Below are positions 1-64,000 of a stretch of 64,000 nucleotides of DNA, in pieces. The DNA comes from a virus (taxonomy: Duplodnaviria > Caudoviricetes). The notes under the pieces are model-generated. The model did no database searches. It worked only from the letters and a program-made list of their open reading frames with translations, and was not told where the DNA came from. The translations under genes and the position numbers were made by a program. The stretch lies in IMG/VR virus record IMGVR_UViG_3300046011_007348, positions 1 to 64,000 of that record; one strand, 5' to 3'. Within the stretch, counting starts at the first letter, position 1. Each line of letters opens with the position of its first letter.

Positions 1-3000
1 AGCACTATAGTGGCTGGGAACATTAGACGGTGCTTGCCTGGTGATGCGTTAGTGCATACAGAGTCAGGCTTAGTACCTATTGCTAAGATAAGAATAGGAG
101 ATCGTGTTCTCACCAGCAAAGGATTTTACCCTGTAACTAACTTCTTTGATCAAGGTGAGCAATCTCTTTGCAGAATCAAAACTCAAGACGGTAGTTTTGA
201 GTGTACAGCAGAACACAAGATTGCTGTGTTAACAGATGTCTATGGCAACTACAAAATGGTTAAAGCCAAAGACTTGAAGCAAGGTGATAGATTAGTACGT
301 GTTCTAGAAGCCACAGAATTAATACCAGTCAAGTTTGTGGACATTGAATTTGATGTACGAACTGCTCCCACTTACGACATAGAAGTTGCTACTGTGCATG
401 AATTTGTGTGCGAAGGCATCTTAGTTTCAAATAGCGCGGGCATGCGCCAGTTCACTTCTAGTGATAACGTAGCTGCTAACGCTAAAGCAAATCTATGGGA
501 GCAAACACCAACTGGAGAGTGGAGAATAGATCCAGAGAAAGATGCTTTGCGCATGGCAAATCACACCAGAGTTTTTCACCAAAAGCCTACTTATCAGGAA
601 GTATTTGATTCAGTAACGAGTCAATATTGGAGTGGTGAAGGAGCAATACAGTGGGCGGGTGAAGCTGTCGCCAGAGCAAATGCAGATTTATTGATTACCC
701 AAAAGCTAAAAGCAAAGTTTTTGACTGCTTACGAAAATGGTGAAGCTAAAGAATGGATAAGAAAAAATTATCCAGGCATGCCACATGCGGAGATAGAACA
801 TAGAGTAAGTACATATGGATTAAATCCATGTGGTGAAATTATTGGTAGCAATTTCCACTGTGTTAGTGGTGACACGCTGCTAATTACCAAAGATGGATTA
901 CACGCAATCAAAGATGTTGTAGGATGCGATGTTGAGATTTGGAATGGTAGGAATTGGAGTCAAGTACAGCCATTCAAAACTGGCAGTTCTCGCGTTCTTT
1001 ATCGTGTACGATTTGCGGATGGTACGTATTTAGATGCTACCGAATATCATAGATTCTTTGTTAAGGATAGGTTTGGCAAAGAATACAAAGAAGTACAGAC
1101 AAAAGACTTAATGGATGCAAGTAAGTATCGTATTCACACCAAGCCATTTACTATTCAGTATGATGATGGATTGGATATTGATACTAATTATGCTTATAGC
1201 TTGGGAGTAGCCGTAGGAGATGGCACCACAGACAAAGACAACAACGCAAAAATAAGATTGTATGGCAAAAAAATTGCTTTGTCCGTAGCAGGCGATAAGT
1301 CTCCCATCAGGGAATATGAATACGTTACAAACTTCACTGATGTTACAAATTTAAGCTTTTCTGGGGAATTTCTGAAGAGTCTCAAAACCAAACCAGAAGC
1401 ATTAAACATCATAGCAAGTTGGAATCGTGAAGCAATCTTGCATTTTATTGCTGGTTTAGCAGATACAGATGGAACAAATAGTAGCGGCAATGGTATTAGA
1501 ATCTACATCTCTGATTATGACAGAGCGTACAGAATACAATTGTTGCTAATTAAATGTGGTATTCGTTCTTCTGTCAATCTTTGCGCTTATAAAGGAGCAG
1601 TTACAAATTATGGTGTTAGAAGTAAAGATTTGTACTCTGTACAAGTAACTGATTGTGGTAAAATCCCTTGTCAGCGATTAGACGTAAGCCAAGGTAGAGT
1701 ACCTAAATGTAAAGGCAAATGGCAAGTTATCAGGAGTGTGGAGCAATTACCGGGATTGCATGACACTTACTGTTTTAATGAACCACAATATCATGAAGGT
1801 GTATTTGGAAACACGTTGACTGGAAATTGCAATTTGTCAGAAATACACTTAAATCAGCTCAATCCTACTGACTACAAAGAACAAGAAGATGCTTTTAGAG
1901 CAGCTTCACTCTCAGTAGCTGCATTGCTTCACCATAGATTCACCGAGCCTATTTATCAAGAATCTAGAGAGTTAGATCCTATTGTTGGTGTTTCCTTCAC
2001 CGGATTATTTGACTTTTTTGTTCATGCTTTTGGAGCAGAATGGCTTCACTGGTGGCAACAAGAGAGAGAAGACAATGAGCAAGGCAGGATATTTAAACAA
2101 AAAGAACAGGAGTATTTATCTAGATGGAAAGACATAGTACATCAAACTGTTTGGGAATATTGTGATAAACACAATCTTAAACGTCCTAATCGTTGTACTA
2201 CCGTCCAACCCAGTGGGTGTCTAGATCGCACTGCATTAAGAATTTTTGATCAAGGCTTACTTTATGCGGATGAATTGATAGCACCTGGCAGTGGTGAAGC
2301 TACTAATTTGAAACTAAGTGTTCGTGAAGGAGTGTCTGTCACCACTGGAATTGCTAATCAACCATTGCAATTGATTAAAGTTACATTAAACAATGGACGT
2401 GTTTTACGTATGACTCCAAACCATCGTCTTTCTATTGATGGAAACTGGATTTATGCGTCTGACATGACTCCTGGAATGAAGATTGATTTTAGTCTTGGGG
2501 AATATCAAAACAGCCAAGAGACTTCACTACTTGATATAGATCAATTTAGCTATACAAGAGAAGCAAAACAATTAGAGTCTGGGCATAATCGTGGTGGCAT
2601 CACAGCAACTATCATTAAAACGCCCAAGATAATGTCTCCTGACTTAGCTTATTTTATCGGAGCATTATTTGGAAATGGATGTTTAAGTGCAACTGGACAT
2701 CGTATTAGGTTTTCTAGTAATAGTTATAAATTGCTAGAAAGACTACAACAAATAGCACAAAATCTGTTTGTTTTAAATGGGAGAATCAACAAATACTCTG
2801 GCAGAGAAGCTTATGAATTAAGCATTTCTAGTGTTCAGCTTTATGATTGGTTGCAATTGAATGGAATAGCTAAAACAGAGAAAAGTCTAAATCTTGACAG
2901 AATACCATTAGCTATTCGTTGTTCCTCTAAGCAAAGTATTCTATCGTTCTTCTGTGGATTGATTGACACTGATGGATGCATTAGAGTTAATGGCTCAATG

Positions 3001-4011
3001 TCCATTGACAGCGCTAGTGAAGAGTTCATTAGAAACCTTCAACAAATAGGTGAAGCTGTAGGATTGTGTTTCTCCGTATTCCATAACACTGAAGGGGAGA
3101 ACAACCAAACACAGAAAAATATGTGGGGTTTATGTTTAAGCCGCATGTTATCTAAACCTGATGCTTTAGATTATCTAAACGAAAATAGTCAAAAAGCTGA
3201 GATTCGTCCTATTCCTTCACTCAAAAGAAGTTATAAATTTGATCCATATCTCATTGAATCTGTGGTGTGGGAAGAAACTTCTGATTACAGCTACGACTTT
3301 GCGGTGCAAGGAGAGGACGACAATGATTCATGGTATTGGCAAGGAGCGATTAAATCACATAACACAAAGTCTTTGTTAACTGGCGCTTCCCCTGGTTGGC
3401 ATCCTCCCAAAGCACAACAATTTATCCGTCGGATTACTTTCCGTAAGAACGATCCAGTAGCATTGGCATGCATAGACTTTGGATATAACGTAGTTCCATC
3501 ACAATCAGATAAAGATGAAAATGGTAACTTATTAGACAATCCTTTTGATGAACGTTGCACAGAATGGTTAGTAGAAATACCAGTAGCAGTATCTTGGGCA
3601 AATCTACCAGGAGTTGATGTTGATATTTCTAAATTCTCGGTGTTGGCACAGTTTGATTTTTATATGCAAGTGCAGAAGTATTACACAACTCATAATACTT
3701 CAGCCACACTTGAACTACGCCAGAACGAAATTGGTGCTTTAAGTAGAGCTATATATGACTCAATCAAGAACAATGACGGGTATATTTCTGCTGCTATCCT
3801 TAGTCGCTTTGATGATTTCCAGTCTTATCCTAGATTGCCTTTTGAGCCTATTAGCAAGGACAAATACTTGCAGTTGGTAGAAGAAGTAAATCAAAGAAGA
3901 ACTAATGATTCTTTCTTAGATGCTTTGCATAAGTATGATAATGGGTTTGATGAACAATCAGGCCCTGCCCCATGTGATTCAGACAAGTGTCTTTTACCAG
4001 AGTTAAAGTGA
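1..4011 (+). CDS. nrdJ: Class II (B12-dependent) ribonucleotide reductase, 5'-truncated by window edge, containing three inteins
   Basis: Extein motifs VAGNIRR/SA, GLNPCGEI, CNLSEIHL, CTTVQPSG/TKSLL, THNTSAT and C-terminal CDSDKC cysteine pair; frame open from position 1. Confidence 0.95.
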   Translation, partial: STIVAGNIRRCLPGDALVHTESGLVPIAKIRIGDRVLTSKGFYPVTNFFDQGEQSLCRIKTQDGSFECTAEHKIAVLTDVYGNYKMVKAKDLKQGDRLVRVLEATELIPVKFVDIEFDVRTAPTYDIEVATVHEFVCEGILVSNSAGMRQFTSSDNVAANAKANLWEQTPTGEWRIDPEKDALRMANHTRVFHQKPTYQEVFDSVTSQYWSGEGAIQWAGEAVARANADLLITQKLKAKFLTAYENGEAKEWIRKNYPGMPHAEIEHRVSTYGLNPCGEIIGSNFHCVSGDTLLITKDGLHAIKDVVGCDVEIWNGRNWSQVQPFKTGSSRVLYRVRFADGTYLDATEYHRFFVKDRFGKEYKEVQTKDLMDASKYRIHTKPFTIQYDDGLDIDTNYAYSLGVAVGDGTTDKDNNAKIRLYGKKIALSVAGDKSPIREYEYVTNFTDVTNLSFSGEFLKSLKTKPEALNIIASWNREAILHFIAGLADTDGTNSSGNGIRIYISDYDRAYRIQLLLIKCGIRSSVNLCAYKGAVTNYGVRSKDLYSVQVTDCGKIPCQRLDVSQGRVPKCKGKWQVIRSVEQLPGLHDTYCFNEPQYHEGVFGNTLTGNCNLSEIHLNQLNPTDYKEQEDAFRAASLSVAALLHHRFTEPIYQESRELDPIVGVSFTGLFDFFVHAFGAEWLHWWQQEREDNEQGRIFKQKEQEYLSRWKDIVHQTVWEYCDKHNLKRPNRCTTVQPSGCLDRTALRIFDQGLLYADELIAPGSGEATNLKLSVREGVSVTTGIANQPLQLIKVTLNNGRVLRMTPNHRLSIDGNWIYASDMTPGMKIDFSLGEYQNSQETSLLDIDQFSYTREAKQLESGHNRGGITATIIKTPKIMSPDLAYFIGALFGNGCLSATGHRIRFSSNSYKLLERLQQIAQNLFVLNGRINKYSGREAYELSISSVQLYDWLQLNGIAKTEKSLNLDRIPLAIRCSSKQSILSFFCGLIDTDGCIRVNGSMSIDSASEEFIRNLQQIGEAVGLCFSVFHNTEGENNQTQKNMWGLCLSRMLSKPDALDYLNENSQKAEIRPIPSLKRSYKFDPYLIESVVWEETSDYSYDFAVQGEDDNDSWYWQGAIKSHNTKSLLTGASPGWHPPKAQQFIRRITFRKNDPVALACIDFGYNVVPSQSDKDENGNLLDNPFDERCTEWLVEIPVAVSWANLPGVDVDISKFSVLAQFDFYMQVQKYYTTHNTSATLELRQNEIGALSRAIYDSIKNNDGYISAAILSRFDDFQSYPRLPFEPISKDKYLQLVEEVNQRRTNDSFLDALHKYDNGFDEQSGPAPCDSDKCLLPELK
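31..432 (+). mobile_element. Mini-intein (134 aa, no endonuclease) in NrdJ
   Basis: Starts CLPGDALV, block B CTAEHK, block F TYDIEV..HEF, ends VSN followed by Ser. Confidence 0.92.
859..1827 (+). mobile_element. Intein (323 aa) with LAGLIDADG homing endonuclease in NrdJ
   Basis: Starts CVSGDT, block B ATEYHRF, motifs LGVAVGDG and FIAGLADTDG, ends TGN followed by Cys. Confidence 0.92.
2218..3363 (+). mobile_element. Intein (382 aa) with LAGLIDADG homing endonuclease in NrdJ
   Basis: Starts CLDRT, block B MTPNHRL, motifs IGALFGNG and FCGLIDTDG, ends SHN followed by Thr of the PSG/T motif. Confidence 0.92.
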
Positions 4012-49670: not shown

Positions 49671-50044
49671 TGGATACAGACATCTTGTATCCTGTTAAAC
49701 ACAAAAGACAGTATAGGAGGAAAACTCAGTCATCGGTGGTGCTATCTGATTGCACCAGAGAAGCAATTGCACTTGAGCTGGAAGTATCTACTAGAACTGT
49801 TCAAGAGTTAATCAGAATTGCATCAACGTATATTGATTTGTTTAATGAGTATACAGATGACAATTACAGATTAAATGGTTTGCCGATAGATTCAAAACAA
49901 CAAGTTGAAGTGTTAAGGCAAATTAGACAAGTTAGACAAAAGTACAGACACGTCAAAGACAAGTCCTTTATTAAGAAGGAGTATCAAAAAATCAACCAAA
50001 GAGTTAAGGAGGAACAAAATGGCAGTCAAGAAAGCAACAGTTAA
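49670..50044 (+). CDS. HTH DNA-binding protein
   Basis: TREAIALELEVSTRTVQELI HTH; GGAGG RBS. Confidence 0.7.
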   Translation: MDTDILYPVKHKRQYRRKTQSSVVLSDCTREAIALELEVSTRTVQELIRIASTYIDLFNEYTDDNYRLNGLPIDSKQQVEVLRQIRQVRQKYRHVKDKSFIKKEYQKINQRVKEEQNGSQESNS

Positions 50045-50621
50045 AGATGTCGCAGCATCAATTGGCTGGACAGTCAAAGAGTTGGTAACAAGACTAAATC
50101 AAGAGCCTGGCATTAATGTCGCTCCTAGTGAAGCTTTTCCGACTTTGTCAGAGGACAGCGAGTTGTGGAAGCAAATCCAAGCTGCTGCTCAAAAAAGTCA
50201 AGTTAGTCAAGAGCCAGTTAAGGAGTCTGTCGCTATTGGAGAAGGCGAGATTAGTCCATACCAAGCGCCAATAGAAACAGTTGAGACATTAGCTGAAGCT
50301 CAGAAAGTATTAGCAGAAGAGACAACTGGCATTCAAGTAGAACAAGCTCGTATACTTGGCTCTGTTGCTGGCATTAATGAAACCATTACATATTTTACAG
50401 CACGCCAACAAGTCACTGAAGCATTGCTTAGACATCATATTGAGCAACAAACTAATCTCACAGATAGTTTAATCGGAAAAGCCAAAGAATCTTCATTTGA
50501 ACTGCACAAGCAGACAAGGAACAGCTTGTCAGGAGCCTATGAATTAAAAAAAACTCTAGAAGAGCAAAAAGCCAGGTTGAAAAACATAGTGACGCAAATG
50601 ACACAATCATTTGGGATGTAA
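50019..50621 (+). CDS. N-terminal HTH-like plus coiled-coil protein; probable -1 frameshift at 50546
   Basis: TVKDVAASIGWTVKELV start; Q/E/A-rich coiled coil; GGAGG RBS. Confidence 0.65.
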   Translation: MAVKKATVKDVAASIGWTVKELVTRLNQEPGINVAPSEAFPTLSEDSELWKQIQAAAQKSQVSQEPVKESVAIGEGEISPYQAPIETVETLAEAQKVLAEETTGIQVEQARILGSVAGINETITYFTARQQVTEALLRHHIEQQTNLTDSLIGKAKESSFELHKQTRNSLSGAYELKKTLEEQKARLKNIVTQMTQSFGM

Positions 50622-50917
50622 TCAGACTGGTTAATGAATCGACTTTAGCGCAAATAGAGTTAGCAATATCGATTGGGCAAATTGAGATGCTTCAGCAAAT
50701 TCTAAAAAGAAGAAAGGAGTTAATTAAAATCATGATTGACACATTGTTAGGAGTATCAAGTGTAGCAGGAGTAGCGACTATAGCAAGTTATTTTGCTGTT
50801 GCCACTGCTGTAGTCAATCCAGTTGTATTAACGGCATTAGGTGCAGCTGCTTTTTTAAGTGGTGTCTATATGCAATTTTCATCATCTAATTCAATTCAAA
50901 TTACCCGGAGAAAATAA
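50543..50917 (+). CDS. Membrane-anchor ORF (ATG 50687/50732), open in the -1 frame from the A8 slippery site
   Basis: Hydrophobic hairpin LLGVSSVAGVATIASYFAVATAVVNPVVLTALGAAAFLSGVY; no stop 50543-50914. Confidence 0.6.
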   Translation: MKKNSRRAKSQVEKHSDANDTIIWDVIRLVNESTLAQIELAISIGQIEMLQQILKRRKELIKIMIDTLLGVSSVAGVATIASYFAVATAVVNPVVLTALGAAAFLSGVYMQFSSSNSIQITRRK

Positions 50918-55188: not shown

Positions 55189-58100
55189 CTATCTTTTAAG
55201 TATTCCACCCTGTCTTTGTTGACGTTGTATTTCTACTATTACTGCTGTTTTAATAGCACTCTGCATCGCATTTGGATCTATGGACGGTGATTTGTCACCA
55301 TCTTGACTTTCAATCGTTATAGGCACATTTACAGTTGTATTTGTTGTTGGTTGATTAATATTTCCTAGTCCAGGAGATGGGGGAATAACTCCACCACTTG
55401 CAAAGTTCATTATGTTTCTTACTTTTAATTCGCTATTGCTTACGTTGCCTCCCATGGCATAGTTCATTACGGATTCAATATTGTTGTTTTTAATTGCTTT
55501 ATCTAATCCCATCGACTGGAACTTAGCATTGTCAGCAACACTCAACACTCTTTCTCCTGGCGTTAATACTGCTACTACTGGTGTTATTCCTCCATTTGCA
55601 GCTTTCTCTCTGACAATTGCTTCATTTAATGATTGAATTATGCCTCCACCAGCATAGTTCTTGATTACTCCTCCTTTGTATTGGCTGGATACTTCGCCTC
55701 CATCGTTGGCACTTGGGACTTCGCCGCCGCTATTTCCTCCAAATATTCCTCCAATTGATTTGAATAATGAATCAAGAATCCCTCCTGCTCCTACTAATGA
55801 TTGCATTAATGATTTGATAGCTATGTTGATAAGTCCGTTTAGCATGTTTTTAGCTAGGTTGTTTAAGACATCGTCTAGTTTTTGGACACCCATTATTACG
55901 TCTGTAAGCCCAGCTGATAAATCATTGATCAAAGAATCTCTAACCATTTGACGGATTGTCGAAACTACATCCTTAGCTGCGTTTTTAGACTCTTCTAGTT
56001 TTGCTTTGTATTTTTCTTCAATCTCCTTAGTTCTTTCTTCATATTCCTTGTCATCTATATCCCCCCCCTCTTTTTCTTTCTTTGCTTTATCTAGTTCGTC
56101 TTGTTTCTCTTTTTTTAAACGCTCTTCATCCATCCTCCGTTGTTCTGCATTTATTTGAAACTGATTGCCACCTTTGTCTCTATATATATTTAATCTTGTT
56201 TGAGCCGTTTCTTGTTTCATGGCAATGACAGTTTGCTTAATATCTTTTGTTAAATCTGTCATTAACTTGGTTTGCATTTCTTGGTTTTTCCGTACAAGAT
56301 CTGTTCTTTGTTCCTCATTCAACAAAACGCTTGCATTAATTTGAGCCTCACGCAAAGCAGTTGCTTTCTCGATTTCATACCGTCTTGATGCAAATTCACT
56401 TTTAGAAAAATTATAGTCAACAGAGTTCATTAAATCTCTTCTTTCAAACCTCCTGTCTACTTCTGTTTTAGTTTCGTTAGCTTTATCAATTTCAAGCTGA
56501 GATTGGTTTTGTATTCTTTTTATTCTAGTAATTTCTCTATATTTTTCTATTCTTGCCTCTGCGTCTACTGAGGTTAATAGTCCTTTTGCTACTAACTCCT
56601 TTGTGTTTAATTCATATTGTGATAAAGCATCTTCAATTTGAAGTTTTCTCTCTTCAAATTGCAACTCTGGCACTGAACGGATATTTAATAACTGCATTTG
56701 GTTAAATGGCATAAGTCCTTCAGCGAAAGAATTTTGTATTTGCGAATCTTGTGTTACAGGGAAATAAGTATTGCCTTCCAATTTGTATTCATCCATACCA
56801 CCAAATCCAAATTTGCTTCTAGGCTTCATTAGTTCCGTTAAATTATTAAATCTTGGTTCATTGGGGTTTGCTGTTGGCTTTTTCAGCTCTTCAATTAACC
56901 GTAAACCCTTCAATTCATCTACTAATTTAGCATTCTCCTTAATACTTTGATTAAACTTTGGTATATCTGAATGCAATTTATCAACATCTATGTTATATTG
57001 CTTAATGTCTGAGTCAGTCATCTGGATTGCTTTAGGATATATTTCCTGTAGCCTTAAGACTTCTTTGTCCAATCTTTGTCCTTCCGTCTTTTGCTTTTGA
57101 AAGATTTCTTCTAGGTATCCCTTTTGTTGTTCTGGTGTCGTAAAATCAATTGTCCCTACTCGTTTGATACTAAACTTTGGATCTACTTGTTCTTGGAATT
57201 TTATTTTCCCCCCAGAATACTCTCCTATCTCTCTACCCTTTTGACTTATATCTAATTCAGCTTGTCTTAAAACATTATCCGAATCTCTTATTTTAGATCT
57301 ATTCTCATACTCTCTTCTAAGCCTAGACATTGCTTTAGTTAATTTAATCCTTTCTTCAATTTCTTTCTTTTGAACGTCTATCGACTTCAAGGTAGTATCT
57401 AAAGTTGCTATATCCACTTTGAATCGAGAGGCTAATCGTTGTTCGTCTTTGTTAAGGCGATCTAGATATTTCTCTCTTTGTTTTACATCTGTGATTTGCT
57501 CAAGCCCTTTCCTGAGTGGGTTAAACAAAGCTAACGTATCAGTTAGTTTACCATCGGTTCCTTTTACAAAGGATTGTCTAAGAGAATTTAATCTCTCTTG
57601 GATATCTTGTCTTGTATCATTTAACTTATTAAGAGTGTCGGTTAACTTTATGCTTTCGGGTGTTAGTGGATCGGGTAATTTATCAGGAGAATATTCGTTA
57701 AGTATGTCAGAAAACGATCTTACTAAACTATTAGTGGAATCCCTAGACTCTCTGATTGTTTTTTTAGTATTTTTAAAGAAATTATCAAGATTACGAATAA
57801 CTGATGCTTCGTTTTGTTTTCTTAAAGCTTCAGCACGCTTTTTGTTTGCTTCATCTTGTTGTTTAAGAATCTCTTCCCTTTGTTTTTGAGAATCTGCGAT
57901 AGCACCAGTGTTTACGCCAGCAGATGGAGAAGTAGAGCCAGTATTAGCAGCGCCAGTATTGGCAGTCTCAGGATTATAGCTTCTAGCTCTCTGGAAAGTT
58001 TTCATGCTATCGCTATCTCCTACAAATCGCCAGTGCCATGGTTCATAATCTATACCTTGACGATTATTCTGAGGAAAAGATAATTCAAAGCCAAAACGAG

Positions 58101-61100
58101 CAGCGTTAGATTGTAACCATGAAAATGCTTTTGTTTTTTCAAATGTGGAATTGAGATTAGTTCCTGGTGCTGCTTTATCACCAATATCGACAGCATATCC
58201 TGTATGATGCTCACTATAACCCGGAGGAGCGCTAACTTTTGCTCTTTGTTCTGGAGTTTGATTGCGTTGGGCAGCTACTCCAAAAAACAATTGTCGTTGC
58301 TGTTGAATGGAACGAAAACCAGAAATAGGAACTAGAACTACACCTTCCTCTTTAGCTCTTCGTGCCATGTATTCAAATTTTTCAGCAGCAATTTGCCGTA
58401 GTTTAATTTTCCCGTCAGTTGTGATAGGACTTAGCTCTTTCAGAGGTGCTTCGTTATAAGCTAAATGCCCATACTTGCTTTCATTGTTACTTGATGTGGT
58501 GTTTGACGCACTCCCTGCTCTAGCAGAAGCTGATGGCACAACAGCAGATATTGGCGTTTGCCCAGTTATAAAAGGTGTAGGATCTATTGCCCGTCCATTA
58601 ACCCTTATCTCAAAATGCAAATGAGGGCCGGTGCCTACTCCTGTATTGCCTAATTTTCCTATTTGTTGTCCAGCTTGAACAACGTCCCCAACCCGAACCA
58701 ACATTTCAGATAAGTGTGCATATCGCGTTTCAAGTTTTTTATTGTCTGGTGTTGTATGTTCTATGTAAATTACCTTTCCATAGGCACCCTGAGTTTTAGC
58801 AATTTTTACTATGCCAGGTAAGCTAGAAACAATAGGTTCCCCAATTTGTCCAGCAAAATCCCTTCCTGCATGCCTTCTACCAGGACGAGGATCTCCAAAG
58901 TGCCCCCCGGGTACAGTCCTTCCTCTGTTTGGGTGCGGATGCACAAAACTACTAACGCTAGATGGTGGGTTTTGTGATGCACCGAAAAAACTAAATAAAG
59001 AAGAAAACACGCCTTGAACACCGTTAGAGTTAGATGAATTACTAGATGTCGAAGAGTTGTTAGTAGGAGTTGATGGAGCCGGTGTTGCATTAGAATAAGG
59101 ATCTATTTTTATGCCCGCAGATCTCTCTAATAAATCAACAGTTTGTTGCAAGCTAACATTCATATTAGAAACAGATTCATTAGCTTTTACCATATTTTCA
59201 TTTAATTTTTCGGTGTTTTTATTAGCCTCCCCCGACTCTTTAACAGTTTGTTGAGTCTGTTGAGTTACTTTTGCCGCTGATGCTCTAACTGCATTTATTA
59301 AAGCCTCTAGTTCTTTGCTTGATTGTGTAAAAGCTTGTTTCATATCAGACTCAATATCTTCTGTGACTCCAATAATGTCTTTACCAGAAGGCAATGTCCT
59401 TATAAGTTCTCTTGCTTCTATTTGGCTATCTTTAATTCTATTTTTAAAATCTAAGCTAGTTCTTTCAGTATCTATTTGACTTAAAGCGGTTTGGTTTAAT
59501 TGTTCTATGATAGATACCAACCCATCTATATATCTAGTAAATTCAGTGTCTCCTAATCCGGTTAACGCTTCATTAATTTTGGTTTTAAAGTTAGCGTTTT
59601 GTATTTCTTGGTTAGCTTTTTTAATCTCTAATCGCCCTTGATCTATCTCTTTAGTAACAGAACGAACGTAATCATCTACCTGTTTTTGTTGTTGTCTTAA
59701 AGACTCTTTTAAATCATATCTGCTTTTAGCTAATGAACTGCGAGCGGTAGCAAGGCTCGTGGCATCATCTTGAGTTTGTTTTCTTAATTCAGTTATTTTA
59801 TCTTTAGCTTCAGTATTAAGATTGCTATCAGGTATTGTACTGAGTAAATCCAAAGCTGCCTTTCTCATTGTGAATAAACGAGACAACCCAGACACTCTTT
59901 GTTCTTGTGATATTATCCCAGATCTCCGTGTTGCATAATCAACATCCCCAGGATTAGCACCGGAGCTATATATCCTTTCCTCTCTAAGTGCAGTAGATCT
60001 ATCAATGTTTGCAGAAAACCTGTCGTAAGCAGCTTGAAATCTATTTAATGCAGATAAAGTATCTTTGTAAACTTGTTCTAAAGGATTAACAGGGACACTT
60101 TTTTCAATGATTTGCTTTGCTTCCTGTGCAAAATCTTTCATCTCTTTAGCTATTTGCAGATAAGCACCTCTCACGGGTGCTGGAACAGTTTTTGCCGCAT
60201 CCTCTAGTTTTTTCGCTTCTTCCAGTAAAACATTAGCCGAATTAGCGTTGGCTTCTACATCCTTAGCCAACTCTTTTCTTAATGCAAGTCTCTGAACTAT
60301 TTGTTTAGATAAATCCGCAGCCCTCTTTTTTGACTCTGGGGTATTTTGTTGAGTTGCTTTTGATTTTTCAACAGATAAACCTAATACTTCTATGTCAATT
60401 TGTTTTAATCTATCAGCAACGTCTTTTACCCTAGCTTTATATTTGTTTTGAGTTTCCTTGGTTAACCCTAAGTTACCAAATTCTTTTTTGCTACTTTGTA
60501 AAACAGAATCAAAGTAATCTAAATTATCAATTACCTGTTTAACTCCAAGTGTAATATCGTAATCAGTATCAGATACAAGTCCTTTTATATCATATTTTTT
60601 AAGAATTGCTTTTTGTTTAGGAGAGATTTTATCAGTTGCATATTCTCCCCCGAATCCAGTATTAATATTTTTATCAAGGCCACGCCTCCTGTTTTCCCCT
60701 TCTCTCTGCGCTACAATCTCTTCGTATTTGTTGTACTCCATTAACCCCAAACTGTTTTTATCTATTTCACCTCTTAATGCTTTATTTACATTTTTGACAA
60801 AATCGTCTGTAGTATATCCTTCTTCTTTCATCCCAAAAACATAAAAAATATCAAGCTGAAGCCCTTTTGAGGGAATAGAATCAGCAACGTTTTTATATCC
60901 TTTAGCCAACTCCTTGCTGCTTTTTTGGTTAACTTTAGAAGCTTCATCAACTTTTGCTAATGAATTACTAATACTTCCCAAAGCTCCATTAACAGATCTA
61001 GCCATTTCGCTAATGCTTTTCTGCATGGGGTTAGAAAAATCACTTCTAGCTAAAAACATAAAGGCTAGTGCTATACCAGCTTCTATCCCAATTTTTGCTA

Positions 61101-64000
61101 AGCTTTTTAATGATTTCATTAAACCTGCAAGCATTTGAGACAAAGCTTGTCCCCATGCTGCTCTAGCGCTACTTGCAAGCATTCCATCGGAGCTAAATAA
61201 AAGAGTAAATGCTTTTATAATTCCAACAGATGTAATTGTTTTCCCCAGTGAAGTAAGTGATGCTCCAATTGCGTTTAAGCCTCCAACAACACCTTGAGTC
61301 CATGCAAAATTTAGAGCAGCTTTTAGCCCTTTAAAACCATTTCCTACAAGTTGGAATAATCCAACAAAAGAAGCCCCAATTCCTTGCCAAAATCCAGCCT
61401 TAAAGCCAGCTGTTATATTTGCCATAAAACCTGCAAACGCTGCTTTTGTTGCGCTAATTCCATCTATAAAACCACCAAATATTGCAGATGCCCCGATTGT
61501 GGCTGGAAGCTGCTTAAAAAATCCAGTAAAAGAAGCCCATAGCCCTTTCATCTGAGTAGCTATTGTTGTTTTGGCAGAATAAAAAGCATATGCTATTTCA
61601 TCTTGTAATCTAGTTCCTATGGGTGAACGTTGTTTAGACTCGACTTGAGCAGATAAGTCAAAAGTGTTTGTGAATAAAGACTGTATTCCTTTTGGAGAAA
61701 TTGCTTCATTTTTCATCCCTACTAAAGACACTCTTATCCCATTAAGTCCCTGTAATAACCCCTTAAACATTGGCATCCCAAAATGTTTTGTAAGGGTAAT
61801 TAATTGCTCAAACATTAAAACTAAAGCAAGCAGTTCAATTACACCAGAAGGAATAACTTTAGTTATATTGCCGATTCCATCAATAAAAGACTTAAAGGGG
61901 TTTTCACTTGGCTTTCCTACAATAGTATCAAACAACCCTTTCCCAGTAATTTTTCGTTTTACACTATCCAAACTACTTAAAAACCATAGAATTCCATTAC
62001 TTACGCCTTCATACATGTTTTGCATTAATGTCTTCTGAGCGCCTAAAAAATCATCTAAAACATCAGCTAAAATGCCTAAGAAAAATGGCCCTAACGCACC
62101 CATAAGCGCGGCAATACCCGCCGTTAACAAACCAGATATATTCATTAAAAAAGTTTTTACTGGGTTCATTTTTAATAAGAAAACTAACCCAACTCCAAGA
62201 GTGGCAGTTACACCAATAACAAAGGAGCTAAAAATTTTGATTATATCGTCTAGGATTGCATTTATTGCGGACGCTATGTTTGAAAAGATATCAACTACAA
62301 ACGAAAATAATCCACCAAAAGCATTGACTAATTTAATAGACATTTCCATCCCAATGTTTTGCAATCTAGTTAGTGAGATAGAAAACCCTTCAGCTCCTTT
62401 TGCCGCCCCGCTATAGTCTATTTTTAATTGTTTTGCAACTTTGGGTAATACTTCTTCTGCTAGCAAACTACCTGCTGAGGACATTTCTATTAATTGGGGT
62501 ATAGAAATGTCTAGTGCCTTTGCAAATATACCCATAGCGGGAGGGAATCTTTCACCCAGCTGCTGTCTTAATTCTTCCATGGAAATTTTGCCCTTGGACA
62601 GCATTTGAGTATAAGCCATAAATACTAACTCAGCGTCTTGCCCAGATATTCCTAGCGCGCCTAGTGATGCACTAATACCTTCAAATAAATCCCTAGCGCC
62701 TTCACCTTCTAATTTTGTTCCTCTAGCTGCAATAGCAATTTGGCTGTAAGCCTGAGTAGCTGCTTTAGCTGGAACGTTTAAGGCTTTGGCTGTGTTCATT
62801 GCATAATTAAGCTCTGCTTTCCCGCCTTCTTTTGAGCCACCCAAAAAGTTTAATCGCCTTTGTAATGGCTCTAACTCCAGCATGGCCTTAACAAGAGACT
62901 GTATTTGATTTCTAACCATAAATACAGCCCCACCAATAGCTCCAAATAACGGAAGCAAAGGTGTTACCAATGGTAATAAAGTTGTGGCAAAAGTTGTGAT
63001 AGGAGCAAATACACTAGCGGCAGAAACAATAAATGAAAGCATATTCTTTTGAATATCCTCCCTTTCGTCTGGCGCAAAGTTTTTCATTTTATCTCGCTTG
63101 AATTGAGCGCCAATTGCATTCCAGAAATCTTTAAAAACGTTTTTAGGTACGACTATACCTCTTTTCCATTGAGTAACTATCTGATCCCAAATTTCTTTTG
63201 GGTTTTCAGCTCCTAATGCTTTTCTAACTTCTCTTTTAACGTCAGAACCAACATTTTTCCAGTTGGCAACAGCTTCATTAAACCCTTTAATTATGGCTTT
63301 ACCAATATTTAACCCTTCCTGAGTAAATGCTTTGTGAAAAGCAGATATACCCAAAAGCAGAGCTGTTATTGCCATTTTTACCTGAGCTGTGTCTATTTTT
63401 ATCCCCATAGTTGCGGCAACGTTTTGAAGCCCACTCGTCTTAAATAACTGTTGGGCTGTACGTGCTGTCATATTAACAGCGCCTTCAACATTCCCAGACG
63501 CATAAGCATTGGCTATCCTAACAGCTCTACCACCCAATCCATTGGTAGCAGAAAGCATTCCAGAATCAACAATTTTATTTATTAAAAAGTCTCTAATACT
63601 GTTAACAATCTTGCTATTTTTTTCTAAAATCCCTCTCAATAAATTACTATTCCCAGGGTTTTTAATAGTAAAACTATCAAACAGTGTTCTTAAAACTTGT
63701 CTAGCTAAGTCTTTAGCACCTGTTCCTTCTATACCAATAGAACTTATGTTTGTTTTAATTTGATTTTGAAGAGTTTGGGTTAAATTTTCCCTAGGGACAT
63801 TTTCCCCAAGTGCTGGTAATTTATCGCCATACACAGAACTAGCAAAACCAGCTACTTTTCGTCCAGCTTGCGCTAAAAAGGGTATGCTAGACAACGTTTT
63901 AAAAAATGGGTTTTCGCTACCTATAAACAATCTAAATAGCTTGCTTATTCCAAAAGCTTGTCCCCCTTTATCTCCCATTTTATCTTCCCTGCCTAAATCA
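55189..64000 (-). CDS. Tape measure protein (5'-truncated) with M23 and M15B/VanY peptidase domains
   Basis: MLSKGKISMEELRQQLGERFP tape-measure motif; HAGRD/YAHL/HLHFE; SGFRS, SEHHTGYAVD, EPWHW; lambda H-like end IQRQQRQGGIL; frame open to window end. Confidence 0.92.
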   Translation of the reverse strand, partial: DLGREDKMGDKGGQAFGISKLFRLFIGSENPFFKTLSSIPFLAQAGRKVAGFASSVYGDKLPALGENVPRENLTQTLQNQIKTNISSIGIEGTGAKDLARQVLRTLFDSFTIKNPGNSNLLRGILEKNSKIVNSIRDFLINKIVDSGMLSATNGLGGRAVRIANAYASGNVEGAVNMTARTAQQLFKTSGLQNVAATMGIKIDTAQVKMAITALLLGISAFHKAFTQEGLNIGKAIIKGFNEAVANWKNVGSDVKREVRKALGAENPKEIWDQIVTQWKRGIVVPKNVFKDFWNAIGAQFKRDKMKNFAPDEREDIQKNMLSFIVSAASVFAPITTFATTLLPLVTPLLPLFGAIGGAVFMVRNQIQSLVKAMLELEPLQRRLNFLGGSKEGGKAELNYAMNTAKALNVPAKAATQAYSQIAIAARGTKLEGEGARDLFEGISASLGALGISGQDAELVFMAYTQMLSKGKISMEELRQQLGERFPPAMGIFAKALDISIPQLIEMSSAGSLLAEEVLPKVAKQLKIDYSGAAKGAEGFSISLTRLQNIGMEMSIKLVNAFGGLFSFVVDIFSNIASAINAILDDIIKIFSSFVIGVTATLGVGLVFLLKMNPVKTFLMNISGLLTAGIAALMGALGPFFLGILADVLDDFLGAQKTLMQNMYEGVSNGILWFLSSLDSVKRKITGKGLFDTIVGKPSENPFKSFIDGIGNITKVIPSGVIELLALVLMFEQLITLTKHFGMPMFKGLLQGLNGIRVSLVGMKNEAISPKGIQSLFTNTFDLSAQVESKQRSPIGTRLQDEIAYAFYSAKTTIATQMKGLWASFTGFFKQLPATIGASAIFGGFIDGISATKAAFAGFMANITAGFKAGFWQGIGASFVGLFQLVGNGFKGLKAALNFAWTQGVVGGLNAIGASLTSLGKTITSVGIIKAFTLLFSSDGMLASSARAAWGQALSQMLAGLMKSLKSLAKIGIEAGIALAFMFLARSDFSNPMQKSISEMARSVNGALGSISNSLAKVDEASKVNQKSSKELAKGYKNVADSIPSKGLQLDIFYVFGMKEEGYTTDDFVKNVNKALRGEIDKNSLGLMEYNKYEEIVAQREGENRRRGLDKNINTGFGGEYATDKISPKQKAILKKYDIKGLVSDTDYDITLGVKQVIDNLDYFDSVLQSSKKEFGNLGLTKETQNKYKARVKDVADRLKQIDIEVLGLSVEKSKATQQNTPESKKRAADLSKQIVQRLALRKELAKDVEANANSANVLLEEAKKLEDAAKTVPAPVRGAYLQIAKEMKDFAQEAKQIIEKSVPVNPLEQVYKDTLSALNRFQAAYDRFSANIDRSTALREERIYSSGANPGDVDYATRRSGIISQEQRVSGLSRLFTMRKAALDLLSTIPDSNLNTEAKDKITELRKQTQDDATSLATARSSLAKSRYDLKESLRQQQKQVDDYVRSVTKEIDQGRLEIKKANQEIQNANFKTKINEALTGLGDTEFTRYIDGLVSIIEQLNQTALSQIDTERTSLDFKNRIKDSQIEARELIRTLPSGKDIIGVTEDIESDMKQAFTQSSKELEALINAVRASAAKVTQQTQQTVKESGEANKNTEKLNENMVKANESVSNMNVSLQQTVDLLERSAGIKIDPYSNATPAPSTPTNNSSTSSNSSNSNGVQGVFSSLFSFFGASQNPPSSVSSFVHPHPNRGRTVPGGHFGDPRPGRRHAGRDFAGQIGEPIVSSLPGIVKIAKTQGAYGKVIYIEHTTPDNKKLETRYAHLSEMLVRVGDVVQAGQQIGKLGNTGVGTGPHLHFEIRVNGRAIDPTPFITGQTPISAVVPSASARAGSASNTTSSNNESKYGHLAYNEAPLKELSPITTDGKIKLRQIAAEKFEYMARRAKEEGVVLVPISGFRSIQQQRQLFFGVAAQRNQTPEQRAKVSAPPGYSEHHTGYAVDIGDKAAPGTNLNSTFEKTKAFSWLQSNAARFGFELSFPQNNRQGIDYEPWHWRFVGDSDSMKTFQRARSYNPETANTGAANTGSTSPSAGVNTGAIADSQKQREEILKQQDEANKKRAEALRKQNEASVIRNLDNFFKNTKKTIRESRDSTNSLVRSFSDILNEYSPDKLPDPLTPESIKLTDTLNKLNDTRQDIQERLNSLRQSFVKGTDGKLTDTLALFNPLRKGLEQITDVKQREKYLDRLNKDEQRLASRFKVDIATLDTTLKSIDVQKKEIEERIKLTKAMSRLRREYENRSKIRDSDNVLRQAELDISQKGREIGEYSGGKIKFQEQVDPKFSIKRVGTIDFTTPEQQKGYLEEIFQKQKTEGQRLDKEVLRLQEIYPKAIQMTDSDIKQYNIDVDKLHSDIPKFNQSIKENAKLVDELKGLRLIEELKKPTANPNEPRFNNLTELMKPRSKFGFGGMDEYKLEGNTYFPVTQDSQIQNSFAEGLMPFNQMQLLNIRSVPELQFEERKLQIEDALSQYELNTKELVAKGLLTSVDAEARIEKYREITRIKRIQNQSQLEIDKANETKTEVDRRFERRDLMNSVDYNFSKSEFASRRYEIEKATALREAQINASVLLNEEQRTDLVRKNQEMQTKLMTDLTKDIKQTVIAMKQETAQTRLNIYRDKGGNQFQINAEQRRMDEERLKKEKQDELDKAKKEKEGGDIDDKEYEERTKEIEEKYKAKLEESKNAAKDVVSTIRQMVRDSLINDLSAGLTDVIMGVQKLDDVLNNLAKNMLNGLINIAIKSLMQSLVGAGGILDSLFKSIGGIFGGNSGGEVPSANDGGEVSSQYKGGVIKNYAGGGIIQSLNEAIVREKAANGGITPVVAVLTPGERVLSVADNAKFQSMGLDKAIKNNNIESVMNYAMGGNVSNSELKVRNIMNFASGGVIPPSPGLGNINQPTTNTTVNVPITIESQDGDKSPSIDPNAMQSAIKTAVIVEIQRQQRQGGILKR

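Follow-up and report, generated by a model that had tools for sequence, protein, structure and literature searches.

A slippery A-tract conserved in freshwater cyanophages most likely directs a -1 frameshift that fuses two adjacent genes

The sequence analyzed in the current work (referred to as the window) is a stretch of 64,000 nt and is part of a 72,023-nt phage contig with a GC content of 36%, which encodes a ribonucleotide reductase, a DnaB-like helicase, a large terminase, virion proteins, tail protein L, a tail-assembly protein and an FtsK/SpoIIIE-like ATPase. It represents a freshwater cyanophage: the runs in which the sequence occurs are lake, freshwater and drinking-water metagenomes, and its nearest cultured relatives are the Cylindrospermopsis raciborskii virus CrV-01T (MH636380.1) and phage Cr-LKS4 (OQ625504.1), to whose FtsK-like proteins the window's FtsK-like protein is closest, at 41% identity. 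The locus of interest lies after a Cro-like gene and before the FtsK-like gene, among HTH-like, small membrane and coiled-coil protein genes, and consists of a gene (here named A) followed in the -1 frame by a small gene (here named B) encoding a hydrophobic hairpin and a charged tail (QITRRK). The features of this locus are listed in Table 1.

Table 1. Features of the A/B locus (positions in the 64,000-nt window)
Feature	Position	Strand	Description
Gene A	50019..50621	+	Zero-frame product of 200 aa; SD AAGGAGG 7 nt before the ATG; stop codon TAA at 50619-21
SD-like AGGAG	50531..50535	+	10 nt upstream of the heptamer; 7 nt upstream of the ATT at 50543
TGA in the -1 frame	50540..50542	+	Upstream limit of the open -1 frame in the window; absent (TAC GAA) in contigs L001, L002, L004 and L005, where the frame opens 6 codons earlier
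Open -1 frame	50543..50917	+	124 codons; stop codon TAA at 50915-17; 48 codons precede its first ATG/GTG/TTG
Slippery heptamer	50546..50552	+	A_AAA_AAA in phase, within TTA AAA AAA ACT and part of the A8 run at 50546-50553; 22 codons before the stop of A; proposed -1 shift site
Trans-frame part	50552..50917	+	121 codons read in the -1 frame after the shift, plus the stop; with A residues 1-178 gives a 299-aa fusion
Linker	50622..50686	+	Codes only in the -1 frame, between the stop of A and the first ATG; no ATG, GTG or TTG
Conserved Met codon	50687..50689	+	Motif GQIEM; codon 49 and first canonical start in the B frame; start of the 76-aa protein reported by gene callers (P0003)
AAGGAG, 12-nt spacer and ATG	50714..50734	+	ATG at 50732; possible internal start for a 61-aa hairpin-only form of B
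Hydrophobic helical hairpin of B	50744..50878	+	Predicted membrane anchor; core conserved in all lineages

The sequence features on which the original prediction rested, namely an in-phase A-tract near the end of A, an SD-like element upstream of it and a -1 frame that stays open into a hydrophobic hairpin, were confirmed at every coordinate. In order to assess whether this arrangement could have arisen by chance, 66 rough ORFs of the genome were scanned, revealing 16 in-phase A_AAA_AAR heptamers in 22,399 codons, of which the other 15 are followed by 2-17 open -1 codons as compared to 121 for the one described here. Similarly, among 24 runs of seven or more A's located in ORFs, the others have 2-21 open -1 codons against 123 at this position. 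The AGGAG motif occurs 172 times on both strands of the 64 kb window, and we estimate the odds of one landing within a few nt of the right spacing at about 1 in 100.

Considering that homopolymers are error-prone, and that one of the related contigs (L005) carries a 1-base deletion elsewhere in gene A, the possibility that the A8 run represents an assembly or sequencing error was examined. The A8 run is identical in five of five related, independent contigs (L001-L005), and is present without gaps in contigs from four of four runs from four studies (X14, a DNA library, and X15, X16 and X18, which are RNA-type libraries). In addition, the zero-frame tail following the run is homologous to the C-terminus of A in a sister lineage (L011, see below). 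This explanation is therefore considered effectively refuted.

Gene A is predicted by AF2 (mean pLDDT 79.6) to consist of a small N-terminal helical domain (residues 6-60), a disordered stretch (residues 61-84) and one long helix of about 118 residues (residues 82-199), with the shift site being located inside that helix. Homologues of A are the proteins P0001, P0002 and P0004, gp048 of CrV-01T, and hits obtained with a profile of A in contigs L035-L041, whereas nucleotide and protein searches of a phage collection with the A region found nothing and a scan of genome contigs found no relative. No family was assigned to A or B above threshold by Pfam or PHROGs, the only row for A being a sub-threshold match to IF2_N (E 0.017). 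Foldseek comparison of the A model against the PDB gave no match with E <= 0.001, rows with E > 1 to the LacI headpiece and the RacA DNA-binding domain being leads only, and the ESM Atlas returned only unnamed, cyanobacteria-rich clusters at 0.89-0.90. The DNA-binding function that had been attributed to A is therefore unproven. The hydrophobic character of the B hairpin is indicated by Kyte-Doolittle 19-residue means above 1.6 centred on residues 69-103, while the AF2 model of the -1 frame product, which is of low confidence (pLDDT 54), shows a long helix followed by two helices (78-91 and 93-115). A predicted complex of A (P0004 alignment) with B (P0007 alignment) gave no verdict (score 0.00) and is not used either way.

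The question then arises whether the 48 codons preceding the ATG at 50687 are translated. The close relatives L001-L005 are 97-99% identical to the window, with only 2-3 substitutions in 50540-50732, and can therefore not be used to test frame constraint. An exhaustive HMMER search of 1.84 billion representatives identified one distant homologue of A (P0004, 33% identity), which led to the L011 lineage, and a search with the -1 frame product led to a third lineage, L015; the HMMER search found no natural in-frame A-B fusion. In both L011 and L015, B is 110-112 aa long, lies in the -1 frame of A and starts at an ATG that overlaps the last 31-34 nt of A, and P0008, known only as protein, is a further 115-aa form. 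The -1 frame of the window aligns with these B proteins from residue 35 (position 50645), which is 14 codons before its first ATG, BLASTP against B of L011 giving 49% identity over 77 aa. Identity upstream of the ATG is the same as in the core (6-7 of 14 residues), and synonymous and conservative changes are visible in the DNA. In the window itself, the linker has 0 stops in the B frame against 3 and 3 in the other two frames, and its codon-usage score is +3.3 against -16.9 and -9.0. At the place of the ATG used by L011 and L015 the window has AGT, and no ATG, GTG or TTG occurs before codon 49 or 55 in the window and its five close relatives (the window clade; 6 of 6 sequences), so that this clade translates an N-terminus of B for which it has no canonical start, although a non-AUG start cannot be excluded.

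A more decisive comparison was provided by CrV-01T, where the corresponding module is annotated as gp044 (tail L) to gp053 (FtsK) with the same synteny (tail L, Cro-like, gp047, A, B, three small genes, FtsK), A and B being the hypothetical proteins gp048 and gp049 (g50 and g51 in Cr-LKS4). Gene A of CrV-01T reads GCT AAG CAA AAA AAG TTG, which is A_AAA_AAG in phase, one codon away from the site of the window relative to the shared Tyr, with a TAA in the -1 frame just before it and the -1 frame then being open across the stop of A into B. Cr-LKS4 differs by one base in this stretch. Scanning of viral contigs with the conserved neighbouring 87-aa protein, which is only 43% identical between the window and CrV, yielded seven more contigs, L036 being close to CrV and the others representing three further sub-lineages (L035, L037 and L038-41). 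All nine loci of this CrV group (2 isolates and 7 contigs) carry CAA AAA AAG TTG in phase, about 20 codons before the stop of A, with 139-142 open -1 codons reaching the hydrophobic core, while flanking synonymous sites vary (for example GCT AAG against GCA AAA). The TTG annotated as the start of B in CrV abuts an AGGAG with no spacer and is TTA in L035, which has no canonical start before codon 67.

Between the stop of A and the conserved Met, pN/pS in the B frame of the CrV group is 0.27-0.39 at pS 0.42-0.63 in five of six pairs, and 0.58 in the sixth and closest pair, which has few changes, against 0.18-0.28 in the core. Indels in this region are 3 and 9 nt long, and the B frame has 0 stops where the other two frames hold 2-7, except for one frame with 0 in L038. 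In the A/B overlap itself the B frame shows no purifying selection (pN/pS about 1 or more, or undefined), the A frame being dominant there, which fits a tolerant linker but proves nothing.

These data bear on the possibility that A and B are two ordinary genes, with B being made only from the ATG at 50687 (76 aa) or at 50732 (61 aa) and the open frame upstream being a relic of a lost start or being constrained as RNA. In support of this, gene callers report the 76-aa protein, both Met codons are conserved in all lineages, L011 and L015 show that B can work as a separate protein, and AAGGAG precedes the ATG at 50732. The codons AGA AAG GAG specifying the latter motif are used in the window, L011 and L015 although AAA (75%) and GAA (73%) are preferred; however, the 12-nt spacer is long, and a hairpin-only product from this ATG is a lead only. 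Against it, the linker is as conserved as the core and is under purifying selection in the CrV group. Furthermore, P0001 and P0002, at 91-92% identity, share the C-terminus of A and hence the Ile-Val residues at the position of the missing ATG, so that the loss predates the spread of the clade, and a 48-codon open frame in 36% GC sequence has, by our estimate, a probability of about 0.03 if neutral. This explanation is therefore considered unlikely.

Another possibility is that the long form of B is a separate protein initiated at a non-canonical codon, without any fusion to A. In the window, the candidate would be the ATT at 50543, since its distance to the AGGAG is close to the 7-8 nt spacing at neighbouring genes, and such a start would explain the coding linker without recoding. 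The CrV group has no equivalent, as its frame reads GCA AAA AAA GTT after the -1 stop and no near-cognate codon is conserved at or after the stop of A (ATT in CrV, ATA in L035, GTA/GCA in L038). This possibility also leaves the conserved in-phase heptamer in 15 of 15 loci unexplained, and AUU starts appear to be very rare in bacteria, making this reading improbable.

Two deeply diverged clades retain an in-phase Lys-Lys slippery heptamer near the end of A, together with an open and selected -1 frame and the absence of a conserved start codon for that frame, the simplest reading being a programmed -1 frameshift. A and B would thus form one recoding unit, in which most ribosomes finish A and make a 200-aa soluble coiled-coil protein, while a fraction slip back one base with two Lys tRNAs re-pairing, and continue in the -1 frame through a helical linker into the two hydrophobic helices of B, resulting in a 299-aa protein in which the long helix of A is anchored in the membrane. 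The original prediction of a -1 shift generating soluble (roughly 200-aa) and membrane-anchored (roughly 300-aa) forms outside the tail-chaperone context is thereby supported, the fixed ratio of the two forms that it also proposed remaining a hypothesis. We hold this reading with fair but not full confidence, as it rests on comparative sequence data without protein, ribosome-profiling or raw-read evidence. The sister lineages L011 (six L011-type contigs) and L015 lack the heptamer, and L015 has a -1 stop; however, in both lineages B has its own ATG, and they therefore show an alternative arrangement and do not refute this reading. At the corresponding site L011 reads CAA AAG and L015 reads CAA GAA AAG, which to our eye look like decayed heptamers, although without a rooted tree this is an inference that does not indicate which state is ancestral.

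Transcriptional slippage, in which RNA polymerase adds one A on the A8 run (A7 in the CrV group), would generate the identical fusion from a fraction of the mRNAs. The homopolymer sits exactly at the junction, and slippage needs no downstream structure, none of which was found with confidence. Conversely, the run is in the X_XXY_YYZ phase in both clades, which slippage does not require, the CrV form is the classic ribosomal A_AAA_AAG site, and runs of 7-8 are shorter than the 9 or more that appear to be typical of efficient bacterial slippage. Contigs from the three RNA-type libraries show A8 with no gap, though contigs drop minor variants. Slippage is consequently viewed as a less probable route than ribosomal frameshifting.

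The signals at this site resemble those of E. coli dnaX, which has A AAA AAG, an upstream SD and a hairpin (PMC5389563) and where, as proposed here, two products come from one mRNA. The heptamer is identical to that of dnaX in the CrV group, whereas that of the window, A_AAA_AAA, may be less prone to shifting in E. coli. In the window clade the AGGAG, conserved in five of five close relatives, may stimulate the shift; within the CrV group an SD-like element is found only in L038 (GAGGT, 12 nt upstream), the other three sub-lineages having GAAGT. The strong hairpin of dnaX lies a few nt downstream of its site, while no convincing downstream structure was detected in the window by folding of 50525-50660 (z = -1.35, 17 of 200 shuffles folding as well). 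In the CrV group a candidate stem (CCCGGA/UCCGGG) starts 10 nt after the heptamer, both arms of which contain the Arg codon CGG (4% of Arg codons in the window's phage), but this stem is invariant and thus lacks covariation support, and only one pair of an inner hairpin is compensatory. In dnaX, moreover, the -1 frame stops almost at once and gives a shorter protein, whereas here 121 residues including a membrane hairpin are added, and the proteins are unrelated.

In IS3-family elements (IS911, IS150), a -1 shift on A_AAA_AAG near the end of OrfA likewise appears to fuse a helical or HTH-type protein, also made alone, to the product of an overlapping ORF in the -1 frame; the current locus has no transposase and no inverted repeats, its downstream part is a 2-helix membrane anchor, and its context is a conserved phage module with an FtsK-like ATPase. 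The tail assembly chaperone G/GT frameshift is comparable in that it appears to give a short and a C-terminally extended form in long-tailed dsDNA phages, but the A/B pair does not lie between the major tail and tape-measure genes, no tail-chaperone PHROG or Pfam match was found, and the extension is a membrane hairpin.

While the mechanism is classical, the gene family and its context are new, and no report of this frameshift was found in literature searches that covered neither supplements nor the original CrV genome paper. Conserved programmed frameshifts in phages are known mainly from tail chaperone and capsid genes, whereas the present one sits in a non-structural module of unknown function and would join a soluble protein to a membrane anchor. 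As a guess held at low confidence, the fusion may tether A next to the membrane-bound FtsK/SpoIIIE-like ATPase encoded four genes downstream. It is possible, though slightly less likely than not, that the frameshift acts as a partition switch which sets the share of an HTH-like coiled-coil protein that is joined to a membrane hairpin beside this motor, and that evolution has moved between one recoded unit (window clade and CrV group) and two separately initiated genes (L011 and L015), providing a natural record of a programmed frameshift being replaced by a start codon, or the reverse.

The finding changes the annotation of two cultured Cylindrospermopsis phages, in which B is currently given a non-conserved TTG start, and predicts a physical link between A, B and probably the FtsK-like ATPase. 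It also offers sister lineages with and without the recoding signal, which makes the origin or loss of a frameshift site directly comparable and testable in a culturable bloom-forming host.

In the single L015 contig, representing one of the sister lineages, gene A was found to be broken at an A5 run (reading TTA AAA AGC ATC TGA), with the rest of A continuing in the +1 frame from position 2600; one A fewer would restore the frame. This interruption, which falls in the part of A that is disordered in the model, could be an assembly error, a pseudogene or another slippage site. The metagenome contig L005, a close relative of the window, has a 1-base deletion in gene A relative to all other clade members, which truncates its A ORF to 150 aa. 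This contig also contains an N. The deletion is probably a sequencing error.

With respect to possible RNA structures around the heptamer, an invariant CCCGGA is located 10 nt after the heptamer in the CrV group, followed about 125 nt further on by an invariant UCCGGG. Both arms contain the Arg codon CGG, which makes up 4% of Arg codons in the window's phage, and they enclose a hairpin (ACUGGC/GCCAGU) in which one compensatory A-U to G-C change is present in L038, a contig of the CrV group. In the window, a perfect 7-bp hairpin (CAAAUGA-CACAA-UCAUUUG) lies just before the stop codon of A, yet its position 42 nt after the heptamer is too far for a usual frameshift stimulator.

Elsewhere in the window, a 1333-aa ORF matches ribonucleotide reductase in three separate stretches and also matches an endonuclease family at residues 873-1013, an arrangement that looks like an intein or homing-endonuclease insertion. 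In addition, a giant ORF runs off the window, being 4453 aa in the full contig and A-poor on its coding strand.

Coordinates of additional features in the window and in related contigs
Sequence	Position	Strand	Feature
L015	2590-2610		A5 run at which gene A is broken
L005	3180-3190		1-base deletion in gene A
L033	2498-2640 (alignment A12 columns 45-50 and 176-181)		CCCGGA and UCCGGG arms of the CrV group and the enclosed hairpin
Window	50595-50613		7-bp hairpin just before A's stop
Window	10-4011		1333-aa ORF matching ribonucleotide reductase
Window	55189-64000	minus	Giant ORF running off the window
Window	50714-50734		AAGGAG, 12 nt and ATG (50732) inside B

Finally, an AAGGAG motif was observed inside gene B, separated by 12 nt from an ATG codon. 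The Arg-Lys-Glu codons at this location (AGA AAG GAG) are the same in the window, in L015 and in L011 (the latter representing a further sister lineage), although AAA and GAA are the preferred codons. This may be an internal start giving a 61-aa hairpin-only protein, which would resemble a holin dual start.
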